From Candidatus Sumerlaeia bacterium (GTDB lineage Bacteria > Sumerlaeota > Sumerlaeia > MVZB01): 64,000 bases of DNA. The stretch covers positions 6,424-70,423 of the forward strand of contig JBDKRG010000038.1 in assembly GCA_039683515.1 (NCBI GenBank). Reading direction: 5' to 3'. Below the pieces are notes generated by a model that saw only the letters and a program-made list of their open reading frames with translations, was not told where the DNA came from and searched no databases. Every line of letters starts with the position of its first letter. The first letter of the stretch is position 1. The translations under genes were made by a program, and so were the position numbers. Of the stretch, positions 5,168-40,913 are shown piece after piece.

Positions 5168-5258
5168 TGCGCTGAAGGCGCAAGAGAATATAGCCTGGGG
5201 CGGAGCGAAGCGCAGCCCCAGGTTACGAATCCATATCGACCGAAGCGCTGAAAGCGCG
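5168..5258. repeat. Tripartite palindromic element (half unit)
   Basis: GCGCTGAAGGCGC - TATAGCCTGGGGCGGAGCGAAGCGCAGCCCCAGGTT - AGCGCTGAAAGCGCG; the core is identical to about 40692-40727. Confidence 0.85.
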
Positions 5259-5278
5259 AAAGAAAGCTGTCAAACCGA

Positions 5279-17908: not shown

Positions 17909-19163
17909 GCCCCAGTATCCTTCTCTTGCGTGCAGTCAGGATGCGATCGATCACGACCACCTGGATGATGCCGGCCACGAACAGCCCGGCCGTCAGCGCC
18001 GGGCCGGCCGGCACGGAGGCGTCGGTCATCGGCCCGACCAGCGCCACGACCGCCGCCGTGACGGTCATGTTGACGAACGCGGCCGGCAGCATCACCTTCC
18101 AACCCAGGTCCATGAGCTGATCGTAGCGGAACCGCGGCAGCGTCCCGCGGATCAGGATGTAGAAGCAAATCAGGACGAACACCTTGGCGGCGAACCAGAA
18201 GATCCCGATCAGCGCCGACCCGACGCCGCCCGCCACGCCCAGGACCGGCTGGTCGATCGCCGCCAGGACAGGCTCCGGCAGGATCGGGAACGGCCCGTGA
18301 AACCCGCCCAGGAACAGCGTCGTCATGATCGCCGAGCTGGTGAACATGTTCATGTATTCGGCCATGAAGAACATCGCGAATTTCATCGAGCTGTATTCGG
18401 TGTGGAACCCCGCGCCGAGCTCGCTCTCGCCTTCGGGCAGGTCGAACGGCAAGCGGTTGGACTCGGCGAACCCCGCGACGAGGAAGATCGCCGCGCCGAT
18501 CGGCTGTTTCCAGATGTTCCAGTTCCAGATGCCGCCGTCCTGGATGCCGATGAGGCGGCTCAGGCTGAAGCTCCCCGCGATGAGCAGCACGCCGACGAGC
18601 GACAGCCCCATCGCCAGCTCGTAGCTGATCATCTGCGCGCTCGAGCGGATGCCGCCCAGGAGCGAATACTTGCTGTTCGAGGAATACCCGGCCAGCACGA
18701 TGCCGTAGACGGCGATGCCGGTGACGGCCAGGTAGAACAGGATGCCGACCTCGAGATCGGTGATCGCCAGCGGCACGTGGAACGGCCGGCCGAGGATCGT
18801 GAGGTCGATCGCCGGCCCGACCGGCACGATCGCCAGGATCATGATCGCCGGCACGATCGTGATCAGCGGCGCGAACTTGTGCAGGATCGGGTCGGCGGCG
18901 CGCACGCGCACTTCCTCCTTGAGAAACAACTTGGCGCCGTCGACGATCGCCTGCAGGATGCCGCCGATGATGAACTTGTTTTTCAGGAACCCGAGGCCGG
19001 GGATGAAGTCGAGGCCGACGCGGTTGGGGCCGATGCGGTGCTGGATGCGCGCCAGCAGGATGCGCTCGAGCAGGACCATGAACGGCACGCACCCCAGCAC
19101 GACGCCGAAAATCACGAGGATTTTCACGGCGTAAATCATGATCTGGATCGCCAGGTCGCTCAT
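17898..19163 (-). CDS. nuoH: NADH-quinone oxidoreductase subunit H
   Basis: Start MSDLAIQ overlaps the nuoG stop; RIGPNRVG, AQMISYE, AESNRLPFDLPEGESEL, RGTLPRFRYDQLM. Confidence 0.97.
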   Translation of the reverse strand: MSDLAIQIMIYAVKILVIFGVVLGCVPFMVLLERILLARIQHRIGPNRVGLDFIPGLGFLKNKFIIGGILQAIVDGAKLFLKEEVRVRAADPILHKFAPLITIVPAIMILAIVPVGPAIDLTILGRPFHVPLAITDLEVGILFYLAVTGIAVYGIVLAGYSSNSKYSLLGGIRSSAQMISYELAMGLSLVGVLLIAGSFSLSRLIGIQDGGIWNWNIWKQPIGAAIFLVAGFAESNRLPFDLPEGESELGAGFHTEYSSMKFAMFFMAEYMNMFTSSAIMTTLFLGGFHGPFPILPEPVLAAIDQPVLGVAGGVGSALIGIFWFAAKVFVLICFYILIRGTLPRFRYDQLMDLGWKVMLPAAFVNMTVTAAVVALVGPMTDASVPAGPALTAGLFVAGIIQVVVIDRILTARKRRILGHAH

Positions 19164-21685
19164 CGCGCCGCGGCCTCCTCTTCCTTTGGCCCGTTCTCCG
19201 CCGGCGGCGCGGCCTTGACGAGCTTGACCGCCGGCAGCCCGGCGCCGTCGTCCAACCGAAGCCCCAGCACGTTGGCCGCGCCGTAGGCCACGCCCTCGGC
19301 CAGATACCGATTGATGCGCACCTGGCTCGGGATTTCGGAGCCGCCCTCGATCATCACCCAATCGCTTTCGCTGAGCCCGAGCCGCGCCGCGTCGGCCGGG
19401 CTGAGCTCGAGGCGCGGCCGCGGCCGCAGCGCGTCGAACTCGCTCGAGCGCGAGCCGAGATGATCCGGCCCCTGCGAATGCTGCACCCACCAAAGCCGTA
19501 GGTCGCTTCGGCCCGAAGCGACATGGGTTTTCATTTCCGGCCGCCCGCTCGAATGCAGCTTGAACGCCGGCCGCTTCGTCACGCCGAAGTAGTTGTGCGT
19601 GCGCTGCGGGGCCTCGGGGCCGGGCTGCTTGAGCACGAACGCGTCGAGCGTCAGCTCGGGCCGCCCCCACGCGCGCGCCAGCTGCGCGAACACCTCGTGC
19701 GCGCGCTTCGTCGCCATCGTGTCTCCCATTTTCATCCCGATCAGCTCGAGGAGCCGCCACTCCTCCTGCGCCCGGCCCGGCGCGCGGACCCCCTTGCTCA
19801 TCCGTTGCAGCGTCCCGTCGATGTCGGTCATCGAGCCGTCGCACTCCATGAACATCGAGCCCGGCAGCACGACCGCCGCCCGCTCGGTGATCCACGACGG
19901 GAAGACGTCGATCGCGATGACGGTCGGCGTCGCGGCGAGCGCGCGCTCGATCAGCCCGCGGCGCGGGTGATGGACCAGTTCGTCGGCGCGATGCAGGAAC
20001 AACACCTTGAACCTGCCCGCGGCGGCCAGCTCGAGCAGCCCCGGCGCGGCCGGACCGGCCTCGGCGACCGGCTCGCCGCCGGCCAGCCGATCGCACTGCG
20101 CGCCCGAGTGATAAGCCCCCTTGGCGTTGCGAGCGGCCGTCACCGGGAGGAAATGCCACCCCTCGCCGAGCGCCCGCGCCAGCCGCAGCGCCACCGGCAC
20201 GAGCTCCGGCGCGAGCGCGCCGCCCGCCGCGTCGAGCGAGAGCGCAAGCAGCCCCTGTTCGGCAAGGAGCAACCCGAACAGCCGCTCCATCCCTTGCGGC
20301 GCGTTGGCCGCGTCCTTGCCACGCTCGAGCCCCTCCGCCAGCGCGCCGAGCGCCGCCGCAAGCTTCTCCGGCCGTTCGAGCCACGCCGTTTCGGCCTGGC
20401 CGCCCAGCCACGCGTCCACGCGCGAATCGATCAGGCCCAGCCGCGTCCGCTTGAGCCGCGCCCCCTCGCGCAGCCGCAGCGCGATGTCCGGGGCCGTGTC
20501 GATCAGCTCGCCGCACGCGACGGCCACCGTCGATTGATACGCCTTTCGGTCGAGCAGGTCGAAGTCGCCGTCGCTCGCGCCGAGCGCCACCCCCACCGCC
20601 TGCGCGGCCGCCTCGCTCCCGAACCGCCCGCGCCAGTCGACGTGCGGCGTTTTGCAGACCTCGCGCGCCAGCCGGCCAAACAGGTAAAACTCCTCGTTCG
20701 TCGAGCGCTCGCCCGCGATGAAGCACGCCTCGCCCGGCGCGCACGCCTTGAGCGCCTCGGCGGCCGCTTCGAGCGCCTTTTCCAGATCGGCCGCCTTGCC
20801 GCGCACAAGCGCCTCGAGCAGCCGGTCCTCGCTGTTGGCGTGCAGCGACCCGAACCGCGTCTCGTTGCTGATGAACCGCGTCGTGTCCTCGTCGATTGTG
20901 TAGAGCCCGTGCCGCCGCCGCGCCGGGGGCGTCACGCGGTAGAGCCGCCCGCCACGCGTCCAGGCCGTCACGATCCCGACCGCGTGGCGCGGCGTCGTGA
21001 TCGTCTGGCGCAGTTCCCACGGCCGCGCCTCGAACCGGAACGGCTTGCTCGTCAGGCACCCGACCGGGCACAAATCAATGACGTTGCCCGAGAACGGATT
21101 GGCGACCGGCCCATTCCCGAATGTCCCGATGTAATTGCGGCTGCCGTGGCCGAACACGCCCATGACGTGCTCGCCCGCGACCTCGTCGCAGAACCGCACG
21201 CACCTCGTGCACATGATGCAGCGGTTGCGCTCGATATCGATGAGCGGATCGAACTGGGGCTTGACGAACCGCCGCCGCGCGTCGACCGTCCGCGCCGTCC
21301 CCCACCCGTATTCCATTGAATACCGCTGCAGCATGCACTCGCCGCCGCGGTCGCAGACCGGGCAGTCGAGCGGATGGTTCATCAGCAAAAATTCCATCAT
21401 CCCCTTGCGGCAGTCGTCGATCAGCTCCGAATCGGTGCGGATCTTCAAATTTTCCGTAACGACCATGTTGCACGAGATTTCAGATTTGGGCCGCCCTTCG
21501 ATTTCAACCAGGCACAGCCGGCAATTGCCCGCCACCGACAGCGCCGGCTGGTAGCAGTAATGCGGCACGTAATGCCCGACATCGAGCAGCGCCTGAAGCA
21601 AATTCCTGCCCTTGGGCAGCATCAATTCCTTGCCATTAACGCTGACGGCGACAAACGGAGGTGAATCTGGAATTCTAATGGTCAT
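19160..21685 (-). CDS. nuoG: NADH-quinone oxidoreductase subunit G
   Basis: CY...AGNCRLC, HPLDCPVCDRGGEC and CIMCTRC...CPVG Fe-S motifs; molybdopterin-oxidoreductase-like C-terminal part. Confidence 0.95.
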   Translation of the reverse strand: MTIRIPDSPPFVAVSVNGKELMLPKGRNLLQALLDVGHYVPHYCYQPALSVAGNCRLCLVEIEGRPKSEISCNMVVTENLKIRTDSELIDDCRKGMMEFLLMNHPLDCPVCDRGGECMLQRYSMEYGWGTARTVDARRRFVKPQFDPLIDIERNRCIMCTRCVRFCDEVAGEHVMGVFGHGSRNYIGTFGNGPVANPFSGNVIDLCPVGCLTSKPFRFEARPWELRQTITTPRHAVGIVTAWTRGGRLYRVTPPARRRHGLYTIDEDTTRFISNETRFGSLHANSEDRLLEALVRGKAADLEKALEAAAEALKACAPGEACFIAGERSTNEEFYLFGRLAREVCKTPHVDWRGRFGSEAAAQAVGVALGASDGDFDLLDRKAYQSTVAVACGELIDTAPDIALRLREGARLKRTRLGLIDSRVDAWLGGQAETAWLERPEKLAAALGALAEGLERGKDAANAPQGMERLFGLLLAEQGLLALSLDAAGGALAPELVPVALRLARALGEGWHFLPVTAARNAKGAYHSGAQCDRLAGGEPVAEAGPAAPGLLELAAAGRFKVLFLHRADELVHHPRRGLIERALAATPTVIAIDVFPSWITERAAVVLPGSMFMECDGSMTDIDGTLQRMSKGVRAPGRAQEEWRLLELIGMKMGDTMATKRAHEVFAQLARAWGRPELTLDAFVLKQPGPEAPQRTHNYFGVTKRPAFKLHSSGRPEMKTHVASGRSDLRLWWVQHSQGPDHLGSRSSEFDALRPRPRLELSPADAARLGLSESDWVMIEGGSEIPSQVRINRYLAEGVAYGAANVLGLRLDDGAGLPAVKLVKAAPPAENGPKEEEAAAR

Positions 21686-21734: not shown

Positions 21735-22392
21735 TCCCAGTCCCGGAGGGACGATCGCTTTCAGCCCGCCATGACAATGGCGGGTAACGGACGATTAAAA
21801 ACACCGAGTCCCGGAGGGACGGTTGATCAACCAAACACGTAATCCTCCTGGTATTCGATCATGTGCATTTTCAAGAACGCCTTGTATTCGTCTTCAAATG
21901 TTCTCTTTCGGTGATGCTCGCCTTGGTTCCGAATGTACTTCGTCGTAGCCTCAATCTGTGAGAATCCATTCGTGAAAACGCCATAACCTTCCTGCCACTG
22001 GAACCTGACACTCGGCGCAATCTCCTCGTTGGCCCATTTTGACGATCCCGCCTTGATGAGTTGAATGCCTTTCGCCGGCGCCATCGATGGCGGAATCATC
22101 AGGAAAATGTGGCAATGATTTTCGGTTCCTCCCGCGATCAACGATTTCATCCCGTTTTCCCGGGCGATCCCGCCCATGTAATCCCACAACCGCCCCATCC
22201 ATTCCGGCAGTATCAGTTTCGTCCGGTTCCGAGTCGAGAAGACGAAATGATAAAGACAACTACCGTAGGTATGGCCGCCCATTGCATGGGTCCTTTCTCA
22301 TTCGTCCCTGCCGGGACTCGGTTATTCTCTCCGTCATCGTTTCCCGCCATTGTCATGGCGGGCTGAAAGCGCCCGTCCCTGCGGGACTGGGA
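21735..22392. mobile_element. IS200/RAYT-like Y1 element with ~87-bp palindromic inverted ends, inserted between nuoF and nuoG
   Basis: 21735-21821 and 22303-22392 are imperfect inverted repeats (TCCCAGTCCCG.AGGGACG..CGCTTTCAGCCCGCCATGACAATGGCGGG...CCGAGTCCCGG.AGGGACG) enclosing tnpA. Confidence 0.88.
21827..22282 (-). CDS. tnpA: IS200/IS605-family (Y1, HUH) transposase
   Basis: YHFVFSTRNR, NHCH (HUH), IKAGSSKW, WQEGYGVF and catalytic YIRNQ motifs, all intact. Confidence 0.95.
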   Translation of the reverse strand: MGGHTYGSCLYHFVFSTRNRTKLILPEWMGRLWDYMGGIARENGMKSLIAGGTENHCHIFLMIPPSMAPAKGIQLIKAGSSKWANEEIAPSVRFQWQEGYGVFTNGFSQIEATTKYIRNQGEHHRKRTFEDEYKAFLKMHMIEYQEDYVFG

Positions 22393-22415
22393 AGTCATTT
22401 CTCATCCAAAGGGTT

Positions 22416-22583
22416 TTACTTGATGTTCTGCTTCACATACCCAAACGCCATTAAAGCAAGCAAGGGACTCGTGATGATCACCACATCAAGTCCTGTTGGC
22501 CTGTTCATGTAACCAATCGCGTAAACAATAGCCTCAAGTGGCAGAAAAATAAGTAAAAAGAAAATTGCTTGTTTTCCTTTCAT
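22416..22583 (-). CDS. Small AT-rich 2-TM hypothetical protein (55 aa)
   Basis: MKGKQAIFFLLIFLPLEAIVYAIGY...VVIITSPLLALMAFGYVKQNIK; starts 7 nt after the nuoF stop on the same strand. Confidence 0.5.
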   Translation of the reverse strand: MKGKQAIFFLLIFLPLEAIVYAIGYMNRPTGLDVVIITSPLLALMAFGYVKQNIK

Positions 22584-22590
22584 GGTATTA

Positions 22591-23898
22591 TCAGAACTTC
22601 GTGTATCCCTTCTCAAACGGGCATTTCCCCTGGTCGATGTGCGCCTGGAATTCTTCCCGAAACCTCGGTATTGTCCGCACTAGGCTTCCTGTCGCGAACT
22701 CGCCCAGCGCGCAGATCGACCGGCCCGTGATGTTGCCGCAGATTTCTTCCAGCAGCTCCACGTCCCCCTGCACGCCCTGGCCGTTTTCCAGCCTTTTTAA
22801 AATCTTGTACATCCAGTTCGTCCCCTCGCGGCACGGCGTGCACTGCCCACAGCTCTCTTCCCAATAAAAATGCATCAAATTCAGCGAGGCCCACGCGAAG
22901 CAAACCGTCTCGTCCATCACGATGATCCCCGTCGATCCCAAAAACGTTCCATACTTGCGCGGGCCGTCGAAATCCATCACCACGTCGAGCTCGTCCTCGA
23001 ACAGCATCGGCACCGACGACCCGCCGGGGAAGACGGCCTTGAACTTGTTGCCGTCGCGGATCCCGCCCGCGTAATCATAAATCAGCTCGCGCATCGTGAC
23101 GCCGAGCGGCAGCTCGTAATTGCCGGGCCGTTTGACGTGCCCGCTGATCGAATAGACCGTCATCCCCGGCGATTTTTCGGTGCCGAGGCCCTTGAACCAC
23201 TCGCCGCCGCGGCGCATCACCTCGGCCGCGATCGCCAGCGTCTCGACGTTGTTGACGACCGTCGGCGACATATACAAACCCTGGATCGCGGGGAACGGCG
23301 GCCGATTGCGGGGGTATCCGCGCTTGCCCTCGATCGACTCGATGAGCGCCGTTTCCTCGCCGCAGATATACGCGCCCGCGCCGAGGTGGATCGCGATCTC
23401 GCAGTTGAACTCGCTCCCCAGAATCCCGCGCCCCACAAGCCCCGCGTCGCGCGCCTCGTCGAGCGCCCGCCGCATCTGCCGCGCCGCCTCGTAGTATTCC
23501 TTGCGAATATAAATATAAACATTTTCGGCGAGCGTCGCCAGCGCCGCGATGAGCGCCCCTTCGATCAACAAATGCGGCCTCTGTTCGAGCACCGGCCGGT
23601 TGCTGAACGTTCCCGGCTCGCTTTCGTCGGCGTTGACGCAGACGTAATGCGGCCGCTCGCGGTTACGCGGGATGAACCCCCACTTGACGCCCGCCGGGAA
23701 CCCCGCCCCGCCGCGCCCGCGGATGTTGGCGGCCTTGATCAGTTCCAGGACCTTGTCCGGCCCCATCTCCAGCGCGCGCTTCAAGCCATCATACCCGCCC
23801 TTGGCGCGGTAGTCGGCGAGCGATTCGGCGCTGCCGGAATACACGGTCCCGGTCACGCCGTGGGTCAGGACGGGTTTGTAGGAATTCGTGGGCCCCAT
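22591..23898 (-). CDS. nuoF: NADH-quinone oxidoreductase subunit F
   Basis: RGRGGAGFPAGVKW, NADESEPGTF, GAGAYICGEETAL, ESCGQCTPCREG. Confidence 0.98.
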   Translation of the reverse strand: MGPTNSYKPVLTHGVTGTVYSGSAESLADYRAKGGYDGLKRALEMGPDKVLELIKAANIRGRGGAGFPAGVKWGFIPRNRERPHYVCVNADESEPGTFSNRPVLEQRPHLLIEGALIAALATLAENVYIYIRKEYYEAARQMRRALDEARDAGLVGRGILGSEFNCEIAIHLGAGAYICGEETALIESIEGKRGYPRNRPPFPAIQGLYMSPTVVNNVETLAIAAEVMRRGGEWFKGLGTEKSPGMTVYSISGHVKRPGNYELPLGVTMRELIYDYAGGIRDGNKFKAVFPGGSSVPMLFEDELDVVMDFDGPRKYGTFLGSTGIIVMDETVCFAWASLNLMHFYWEESCGQCTPCREGTNWMYKILKRLENGQGVQGDVELLEEICGNITGRSICALGEFATGSLVRTIPRFREEFQAHIDQGKCPFEKGYTKF

Positions 23899-39961: not shown

Positions 39962-40069
39962 GCGAACACCTCTCCCAAATAGGCGCAGCAGCCCGCAAGG
40001 GTGCGATCCGTGCCATCATCCTTATCGCCGCGCACGCCTGAAAAGTTGAGAGGGCGTCAAAAAAAGATC

Positions 40070-40158
40070 AATGATGAATGATGAGTGATGAATGATGAAA
40101 AACAAGGCGCCTGTTACGGACGAACATTCATCATTCATCACTCATCATTCATCATTCC
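40070..40158. repeat. Inverted heptamer arrays (TGATGAA/G)n...(T/CTCATCA)n
   Basis: ATGATGAATGATGAGTGATGAATGA pairs with TCATTCATCACTCATCATTCATCAT; a similar element lies at 48943-49045. Confidence 0.88.
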
Positions 40159-40593: not shown

Positions 40594-40913
40594 AGCCCGC
40601 TTGAGCGGGCTGAACCGGTTGCCACCGGCTTCAGCCGGATACTATGTTTAGCGTGTCGGTCATGCAGCAAAGCGCTGAAAGCGCGAAACAATATAGCCTG
40701 GGGCGGAGCGAAGCGCAGCCCCAGGTTGCGTGACAGTAAAATTCGGAGCGCTGAAAGCGCGGGAGAAATTGGTTCCTCTCGCTCTTTCAGAGCTCCGGGT
40801 TATTGCGATTCTCGACCTGGGGCTGCGCTTCGCTCCACCCCAGGCTCTTGTCTCTTGCGCCTTCAGCGCAAAAAAAACAGATCAACCACGCTAAACGCAT
40901 GCTCAGCCGGTGG
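40594..40913. mobile_element. Nested palindromic miniature elements
   Basis: Inner full tripartite IR element 40671-40870, inside GTTTAGCGTG/CACGCTAAAC and CCACCGGCTTCAGC/GCTCAGCCGGTGG inverted pairs. Confidence 0.75.

Follow-up and report, generated by a model that had tools for sequence, protein, structure and literature searches.

Within a 64,000-nucleotide (nt) stretch of the genome of a Candidatus Sumerlaeia bacterium (assembly GCA_039683515.1, contig JBDKRG010000038.1, positions 6,424 to 70,423), hereafter called the window, the complex I operon contains an additional small gene, which is the subject of this report. The gene encodes a 151 amino acid (aa) protein of the Y1/HUH type, lies between nuoF and nuoG, and is bracketed by two modules of three hairpins each that are inverted relative to each other (Table 1). 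An original prediction, made from the letters of the window, had described a Y1 enzyme retaining its HUH motif and catalytic tyrosine, long inverted ends composed of three hairpins, and a co-oriented position inside the nuo operon, and all three descriptions hold. Both Pfam and NCBIfam models recognize the enzyme, whose residues H56, H58, and Y116 do not vary among 16 relatives; the two modules are 93% complementary over their outer 55 nt; and Pfam calls place nuoF, the Y1 gene, and nuoG on the minus strand, with the Y1 gene in the middle.

Table 1. Features of the locus and of related elements in the window, numbered from its first letter
Feature	Position	Strand	Evidence
Y1/HUH gene, 151 aa	21827..22282	-	Open reading frame, Pfam, and NCBIfam; motifs NHCH, WQ, YIRNQGEHH
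Left three-hairpin module, 3' of the Y1 stop	21735..21826	+	Fold, repeat alignment with 17 solo copies, RF01687 match
Right three-hairpin module, inverted copy 5' of the Y1 start	22298..22392	-	Repeat search, RF01687 match
nuoF, upstream host gene	22591..23898	-	Pfam Complex1_51K, NADH_4Fe-4S, SLBB
nuoG, downstream host gene	19160..21685	-	Pfam Fer4_Nqo3, NADH-G_4Fe-4S_3, Fer2_4, Molybdopterin
AT-rich 55-codon open reading frame between nuoF and right module	22416..22583	-	Neighbor of the element; no Pfam or NCBIfam family
Solo three-hairpin module, repeat family of the C36 paralog	5168..5260	-	RF01687, 36.7 bits (match 5168-5222), sequence
Gene-less inverted doublet, C36-type family	40671..40870		RF01687, 47.3 bits at 40671-40725 (-), sequence

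The left module consists of a short hairpin (21740-21752), a long one of 20 nt (21765-21784), and a second short one (21808-21820), and it terminates in GGTTGA, which abuts the stop codon of the Y1 gene without a gap. In the right module, the corresponding hairpins are found at 22375-22387, 22343-22362, and 22304-22317, the last of these, the inner one, closing on a 4-nt loop. Each module is about 92–95 nt long, and the complementarity of the two arms falls to 76% over 25 nt in their inner parts. For the 20-nt long hairpin there are two occurrences in the window versus 0.01 expected by chance, for the short-hairpin pattern three versus 0.14, and folds of the modules as single strands gave z values from −1.9 to −4.0. 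The list of open reading frames (ORFs) of the locus has none of tnpB size beside the Y1 gene. A scan for promoters and terminators returned one promoter-like site (1.2 expected) and four terminator-like sites (1.3 expected), and is not informative apart from the hairpin that follows the Y1 stop codon.

The protein matches the Pfam family Y1_Tnp (E 2.5e-23), the NCBIfam model transpos_IS200 (65.4 bits, cut-off 55), and, among the sequences of the PDB, the IS200, IS608, and ISDra2 transposases (E 2.4e-7 to 5.5e-3), with the Tyr-bearing helix aligned. In an alignment of 49 sequences, from which one locus (L057) was dropped because of an in-frame stop in its matched stretch, while being retained in the flank tally given below, H56, Y116, Q120, H124, and the pair W96-Q97 are invariant, and H58, F129, E132, and L137 are conserved at 90% or more. 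An AlphaFold (AF2) model built from 49 relatives has a predicted local distance difference test score of 92 and a predicted template modeling score of 0.86, and contains additional predicted helices at residues 129-139 and 146-150. When this model was submitted to Foldseek, the top 29 PDB matches were all IS200/IS605 TnpA proteins (E 1.5e-8 to 3.7e-7, TMq 0.59–0.63), and the E. coli transposase (4er8) that is associated with repetitive extragenic palindromes (REPs), i.e., the RAYT protein, followed at rank 30 with E 4.3e-5 and 14% identity.

The residues around the catalytic tyrosine, YIRNQGEHH, conform to the pattern Y-x3-Q-x2-HH, which is present in all six Y1 paralogs of the genome, whereas the HuH motif reads NHCH in the window protein and DHIH or DHLH in the other paralogs. 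This combination leads to the TnpA-Y1 subclass 1.2 of Quentin, Siguier, Chandler, and Fichant (2018, PMC6006769), which the article describes in Table 1 and elsewhere by a length of about 148 aa, the motifs WQ, Y-x3-Q-x2-HH, and DH[IV]H as HuH, a tail of about 30 aa that is conserved at the C terminus, 1.7 copies per genome with a mean identity of 36%, the entry “REP: no”, and an occurrence mainly in Cyanobacteria and Bacteroidetes. Judged by its motifs, the window protein carries the signature of this subclass, with which it shares the Y-x3-Q-x2-HH and WQ motifs, a length of about 150 aa, the conserved C-terminal tail, the lack of insertion sequence (IS) behavior, and the presence of few, diverged copies (six here at 26–39% identity, as against the 36% mean of that article). 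It departs from the subclass in having NHCH instead of DH[IV]H, and the assignment is one by motif table. Class 3 of the same scheme, defined by Y-x4-Q and a CnGA foot, was ruled out by the Y-x3-Q spacing found here, and the comparison sequence of E. coli RayT has Y-x3-NP.

A maximum likelihood tree rooted on E. coli RayT included the five paralogs, relatives, and 30 of the 77 loci from other phyla introduced below, with six annotated IS200/IS605 TnpA proteins, three of which adjoin tnpB, as the IS reference set. The six references form a clade of their own with 98% ultrafast bootstrap support that excludes the window protein, the paralogs, the relatives, and the 30 other-phylum loci; the joint monophyly of these excluded sequences has a weak support of 50–61%. 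The sole Bacteroidota reference in the tree, an annotated Bernardetia tnpA, groups with the Bacteroidota loci.

The descent of the gene was followed by comparing the genome that holds the window (G000, 4.35 Mb in 60 contigs) with others, of which G001 and G002 belong to the same genus, while G003, G004, and G005 represent three other genera of the family. In G000 the Y1 gene is single-copy: the five other Y1 genes are 26–39% identical to it, and near-identical copies or fragments of it are absent from the rest of this genome. An ortholog, co-oriented and between nuoF and nuoG, is found in G001, G003, G004, and G005, so that with G000 four genera share the arrangement. The identity of these orthologs to the window protein is 91% in G001, 64% in G003, 70% in G004, and 69% in G005, and that of nuoF in the same genomes is 90, 83, 80, and 78%, respectively. 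The ratio of nonsynonymous to synonymous divergence (dN/dS) is 0.045–0.167 for the Y1 gene versus its orthologs, the lowest value being that of the same-genus ortholog, and 0.073–0.184 for nuoF. The dS values themselves are saturated (0.8–2.2); the value of about 1.2 to the same-genus ortholog indicates that the gene is old. The trees of the Y1 protein and of nuoF both recover the pair (G000,G001) and show no supported conflict, and congruence is judged only for this pair, with deeper nodes at 35–49% support. Thus, the Y1 gene has been in the nuoF-nuoG spacer since before the split of the four genera, and with its single copy, its synteny, and the purifying selection acting on it, it is not a mobile IS copy.

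The contrary view, that the locus is an autonomous and still mobile IS200-type IS with long terminal inverted repeats (TIRs) that entered the nuo operon recently, would agree with the NCBIfam label of IS200/IS605 family transposase and with the nearest fold and sequence matches. It would also suit the composition of the gene, whose GC content of 0.51 and third-position GC content (GC3) of 0.65 are far below those of host genes: GC3 is 0.77–0.93 in the nuo genes, and the six paralogs together with six Y1 orthologs or homologs of relatives have GC 0.46–0.56 and GC3 0.57–0.69. The comparison of empty sites, which the original prediction had called for and whose outcome we also count for vertical descent, lends it a further point, in that the gene-less nuoF-nuoG junction is tight, measuring about 40 nt in G006, 53 nt in G008, and 81 nt in G010. 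Nevertheless, we consider this view very improbable, given the one copy without near-identical copies or fragments, the identical site and orientation in four genera with an identity that falls roughly in step with that of nuoF, the age conveyed by dS, the position outside the six-member reference clade, and a Y motif of subclass 1.2 type instead of the Y[IV]ENQ listed in Table 1 of PMC6006769.

Two further genomes illustrate the fate of the site. The nuoF-nuoG spacer of G002 measures 535 bp and is without the Y1 gene, nuoF and nuoG being intact, and in G007 neither nuoF nor nuoG is found within 1.5 kb of the nearest homolog (53% identity). In both genomes the nuoF-nuoG spacer holds an ORF of 136–142 aa (L019:1019-1429 in G002, L120:989-1417 in G007) that matches the TIGR02436 four-helix-bundle family with 83.8 and 74.9 bits, respectively, and small cassettes thus seem to have landed in this spacer repeatedly. 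The TIGR02436 ORFs in these spacers are bounded by inverted simple-sequence repeats.

The hairpin modules are not confined to the gene. The original prediction had made the existence of gene-less copies of the ends a point to be checked, and a repeat search of G000 recovered 17 solo modules of the window-gene family on 11 contigs in addition to the two flanks, 14 of the 17 being intergenic according to a crude GC3-based gene call. The conserved block begins with the A that precedes the first short hairpin and runs through the terminal TGA, except for a spacer of about 23 nt before the third hairpin, which is not conserved. Across the 19 aligned copies, 97.9% of the pair cells are paired and two pairs vary on both sides (UA 12/CG 7 and UA 13/CG 6). 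For hairpin 1, five rows with the longer stem variant are shifted by three columns, which makes the U-G counts and the 5 unpaired cells of this helix artefacts of the alignment, and only the pair 18-28 (UA 12, CG 7) is meaningful.

Both flanks match the Rfam family RF01687, known as Acido-Lenti-1, at 21739-21784 (-) with 41.8 bits and at 22343-22388 (+) with 39.3 bits, the gathering score being 37. Each match covers the long and the outer short hairpin, i.e., two-thirds of the module, and lies on the strand opposite to the module orientation used here. The genome has at least 130 RF01687 matches at E ≤ 0.01, at least 71 of them above the gathering score, which are lower bounds from scoring 150 of 1240 candidates. 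These matches form 86 clusters, of which 36 lie in tandem, 27 in convergent, and 6 in divergent spacers, 12 at contig edges, and 5 inside a called ORF, whereas the background spacers of G000 comprise 1121 tandem, 357 convergent, and 414 divergent ones. The placement is therefore REP-like, in gene-end spacers, with 27 of the 69 classifiable clusters between convergent genes versus a background of 19%. Moreover, 33 of the 86 clusters are “-+” doublets, mostly 140–145 nt apart and with the same polarity as around the Y1 genes, and only 1 is a “+-” doublet. Twelve of the 33 doublets are bounded on both sides by an inverted 8-mer (eleven at 270–274 nt and one at 289), with one-sided cases in 8 more, an example doublet being C3:10423-10622; such doublets may be larger units with termini of their own, similar to miniature inverted-repeat transposable elements. 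As for the 12 clusters at contig edges (e.g., C50:1-54, C57:1-54, and C13:22-76), the repeats break the assembly, and the copy numbers are for this reason underestimates.

The same pairing of enzyme and repeat recurs within the genome, where all six Y1 paralogs are flanked by multi-hairpin inverted repeats. The 130 RF01687 matches fall into several sequence families, two of which flank the C36 and C42 paralogs, and the three remaining paralogs are flanked by 37–49-nt inverted repeats of other hairpins. Searches with the arm of each paralog (blastn-short, E ≤ 1e-4) detected 17, 11, 38, 116, 7, and 20 dispersed sites, the window gene being listed first and the six sets being counted separately, so that they may overlap. 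As judged from these matches, each paralog has its own repeat family, and those of the five other paralogs are found at 7–116 places. On this point the original prediction, which had put forward the window enzyme as a candidate for the kind of enzyme that mobilizes the gene-less tripartite elements elsewhere in the window, needs correction. The only other RF01687 matches in the window (5168-5222 and 40671-40725) have C36-type sequence, and the elements that contain them carry the flank sequence of the C36 paralog, which would therefore be their cognate enzyme.

The doublet among these elements is composed of a full three-hairpin module followed by an inverted long and short hairpin. It is adjoined, at 40597-40640, by a module of the C4-paralog flank family, so that families pile up in the manner of the mosaics known as bacterial interspersed mosaic elements. 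In addition, a tandem array of seven RF01687 modules lies beside the C36 paralog (C36:86170-86682, or L004:1967-2479), with the starts mostly spaced by 76 or 77 nt; the search of the own genome found six of these modules and the scan of the locus one more.

A Y1 match is present in 29 of 41 relatives; at least seven RF01687 matches were counted in 20 of these 29, and one or two in 2. In the 12 relatives that lack a Y1 match the motif is nearly absent, since 10 are free of it and the two others contain 3 and 1 matches, respectively. All these counts were taken at E ≤ 1e-4 with at most 113 candidates scored per genome and are lower bounds. The long-hairpin pattern of the window gene occurs 18 times in G000, 44 in G001, 8 in G002, 35 in G003, and 75 in G005, against 0 for the reversed control in each, and this hairpin family travels with the gene; G002, without the Y1 gene at the nuo site, has the fewest matches of the genomes compared. 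Among the 64 exact-match rows listed for G005 (of 75 matches in total), the majority have the very same loop variant, pointing to a recent burst in this genus.

A scan of other phyla, started from a closer alignment of 7 sequences, kept 80 loci out of 591 confirmed relatives; three of these duplicate G004, G005, and G007, leaving 77 loci, all of which were scanned with Rfam. In 49 of them, an RF01687 match in “-” orientation lies within 400 nt upstream and one in “+” orientation within 400 nt downstream, at median distances of 60 and 53 nt, respectively. Another 11 have a match on one side only or in another arrangement, and the opposite polarity is seen in 4 of the 77. The flanked loci come from Acidobacteriota, Planctomycetota, Verrucomicrobiota, Calditrichota, and others.

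These counts bear on the possibility that the modules act as RNA, as a small RNA (sRNA), a terminator, or an mRNA-stabilizing structure, and that Y1 genes insert into or persist beside such hairpins. Weinberg 2010 (PMC2864571), whose seed alignment is in its supplement, enters “y” under “RNA?” for Acido-Lenti-1 in Table 1; the enrichment of clusters between convergent genes would fit this possibility, and so would the short hairpin after the Y1 stop, which precedes a T-rich run and was scored terminator-like. The stretches 21020-21239, 21380-21606, 22111-22300, 22333-22507, and 23047-23296 are covered by contigs from an RNA library, the fourth of them including the right module, but assembled contigs of this kind cannot show strand, ends, real transcription, or a single nuoF-Y1-nuoG transcript. 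Against a role as RNA stand the mirror-image flanks, present in 49 of the 77 loci with the opposite polarity in only 4, as a consequence of which a transcript would carry one sense and one antisense copy. The solos between co-directional genes point 4 one way and 2 the other, each of the six paralogs has a private family, the motif is scarce in relatives lacking the Y1 gene, and the gene-less doublets keep the “-+” polarity, 33 versus 1. On balance, we regard the RNA explanation as improbable, although not negligible.

Another explanation is that the enzyme and the hairpins have been wholly co-opted by the host, for instance for handling hairpins at the replication fork or for tuning the nuoF/nuoG ratio, and that nothing is mobilized any longer. 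A purifying selection as strong as that on nuoF, a position in an essential operon that is fixed across four genera, and the old appearance of the family copies in G000, with their unrelated spacers, are what such a history would be expected to leave. It accords poorly with the loop variant shared in G005, which resembles a recent amplification, with G002, which lost the gene from the site and kept nuoF and nuoG intact, and with G007, where the nearest homolog is away from these genes; in addition, no evidence for a host function was obtained. Complete co-option appears to us quite improbable.

Comparison with known systems helps to place the locus. With the IS200/IS605 elements of subclass 1.1, such as IS608 and ISDra2, it shares the Y1_Tnp fold, the HUH motif and tyrosine, and the closest solved structures, and the chemistry on hairpins of single-stranded DNA is presumed to be the same; unlike them, it is not multi-copy (the next best gene is 39% identical), is without tnpB, lies outside the reference clade, and has long inverted ends in place of two different subterminal hairpins. 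The resemblance to REPtrons is closer in terms of organization. As set out in the main text of PMC6006769, in these units, known from E. coli RayT and from Pseudomonas, RAYT (TnpA-REP) genes are flanked by inverted REPs and accompanied by dispersed REP/REPIN populations; here, too, a single-copy and vertically inherited gene is flanked by inverted hairpins that are dispersed in the genome, with gene-end repeats, gene-less inverted doublets, and a private repeat family for each paralog. However, the protein belongs to class 1 (Y...Q) and not to class 2 (Y...NP), with the fold of RayT matching only at rank 30, the unit is a three-hairpin module of about 92 nt instead of a palindrome of 20–40 nt, and the GT[AG]G foot, a feature of REPs, is absent from either strand of either arm.

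A third group, the TIR-flanked tyrosine transposases (TIRYT/TIRtrons) of Di Nocera, De Gregorio, and Rocco (2013, PMC3733652), which includes an Acidobacteria group in that article, is similar in that a tyrosine transposase gene is accompanied by long, partly self-complementary TIRs that form a moderately abundant family. In contrast, neither arm contains the sequence GGGGWSAS, which most TIRYT repeats have, and the protein is of the Y...Q and not of the Y...NP type; in the main text of PMC6006769, 26 TIRYT examples are assigned to subclasses 2.1, 2.2, and 2.5, which have Y...NP and often a helix-turn-helix tail. The CGTC-tagged REPs of PMC3733652 were also considered, an idea that arose from the other strand of the short hairpin beginning with those letters, and were discarded: their stems have 8–9 bp and start with A-T, while the stems here have 5 G/C-rich pairs.

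With respect to subclass 1.2, the inverted three-hairpin flanks, the 17 solo copies, and the 49 of 77 homologous loci flanked by RF01687 differ from the entry “REP: no”, and we take them to extend the description without excluding the membership. With respect to RF01687, the ends agree with the seed in the long hairpin, in the spacer beginning with CU, and in the short hairpin. Rfam files the family as an sRNA gene of unknown function, whereas here it behaves as a DNA repeat tied to a Y1 gene, and its occurrence reaches beyond Acidobacteria and Lentisphaerae to Sumerlaeota and many other phyla. The term “IS200/RAYT intermediate”, under which the locus had been proposed, is fair insofar as sequence and fold are IS200-like and the way of life is RAYT-like, and falls short insofar as this type of protein was already described as subclass 1.2, which Table 1 of PMC6006769 lists without REPs, while solo copies exist here. 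The tree likewise answers in part, being firm on the exclusion from the IS200/IS605 reference clade and loose on the unity of the remainder.

We conclude, with a probability of about 0.72, that the locus is a REPtron-like unit formed by a domesticated, vertically inherited Y1/HUH enzyme of subclass 1.2 and its cognate hairpin repeats, which would serve as single-stranded DNA substrates. This conclusion builds on the pairing of enzyme and hairpins, the single copy, the synteny, the purifying selection, the dispersed solos, and the recurrence across phyla, all of which are shown, while the biology of IS200/IS605 and RAYT systems provides the ground for proposing that the Y1 enzyme binds, cleaves, and mobilizes the modules. 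The gene is bracketed by inverted cognate modules, the outer two hairpins of each representing the Acido-Lenti-1 motif. In such a mechanism, the enzyme, probably a dimer like the IS200/IS605 TnpA, would bind the hairpins in single-stranded DNA and would cut and rejoin beside them through a 5'-phosphotyrosine formed by Y116, while H56 and H58 would hold the metal. Excision and re-insertion of gene-less modules would maintain a small dispersed population in gene-end spacers. The Y1 gene itself no longer moves, and the five paralogs in this genome are each paired with a different hairpin family.

Several observations weigh against this conclusion. Cleavage, excision, or new insertion was seen neither in the sequencing contigs nor in the same-genus comparison. 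The only joint in the available sequencing contigs, which leads from 21773 back to 21732 with an insert of 26 other letters, was considered as an excision product and rejected, as it matches the flank of another genomic copy of the module at C9:75124. For the solos, the empty-site comparison was not favorable either, since the search of G001 and G002 with a 19-kb region that contains three solo modules gave no clean empty site but fragmentary, rearranged matches at 66–86% identity and many repeat matches. The spacers of about 23 nt are wholly different among the copies, so that recent movement in G000 is not shown, and the low GC3 of the Y1 genes (0.57–0.69) relative to the nuo genes of this genome (0.79–0.93) is odd for a long-resident gene. 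The case of G002, with gene loss and fewer repeats, is a single one. Seven of the 29 Y1-positive relatives have no RF01687 match, and the related genomes are not independent of each other, in addition to their counts being lower bounds. Finally, 17 of the 77 loci have no RF01687 flank, and these include all seven Bacteroidota loci, which form one clade with 100% support, and most of one Acidobacteriota subclade; the unflanked Bacteroidota loci fit the “REP: no” of Table 1 in PMC6006769 and may explain that entry.

A bolder extension of the REPtron-like reading would hold that Acido-Lenti-1 is not an RNA gene but is partnered, as DNA, with a branch of IS200-like enzymes that is widespread and was domesticated long ago, that one genome keeps six orthogonal enzyme–repeat pairs, and that the nuo enzyme is retained because the host benefits from it. 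We put this forward tentatively and regard it as more doubtful than probable. A literature search, which left outside the commentary in the PDF of Weinberg 2010 and the supplementary tables of Quentin 2018, found no publication linking RF01687 to a Y1 enzyme, and none was found that followed up on TnpA-Y1 subclass 1.2. Should the extension be true, these loci would represent a natural set of mutually specific enzymes for cutting and joining single-stranded DNA, with readable recognition modules, and, if the pairs are specific, potential orthogonal HUH tags for linking proteins to DNA.

Even the less ambitious conclusion of a REPtron-like unit has consequences. It offers a concrete and testable role at the DNA level for Acido-Lenti-1, provides candidate substrates for subclass 1.2, which was described in print without a DNA partner, and bears on the persistence of enzyme–repeat partnerships of the REPIN-RAYT style outside Proteobacteria. 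The labels “IS200/IS605 family transposase” and “Acido-Lenti-1 sRNA” are probably both misleading at such loci. The evidence for a long vertical residence in the complex I operon and for six parallel pairs in one genome is unusually clear here, making G000 a compact test bed with six enzyme–repeat pairs and one gene fixed in an essential operon over four genera, to which G002, with this gene lost and fewer repeats, provides a sister genome for comparison.

Two minor features of the window remain to be mentioned. The AT-rich 55-codon ORF directly after nuoF (22416-22583, minus strand) has a GC content of 0.40 and two hydrophobic stretches, belongs to no Pfam or NCBIfam family, gives tblastn matches only in G000 and G001, i.e., in one genus, and is overlapped by the RNA-library contig 22333-22507. 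At 40068-40158 there is a palindrome of about 90 nt made of short tandem units around a 26-nt centre, with weak, sub-threshold Rfam matches on both strands; it looks like the gene-less arms of a cassette of the simple-repeat kind found in G002 and G007.

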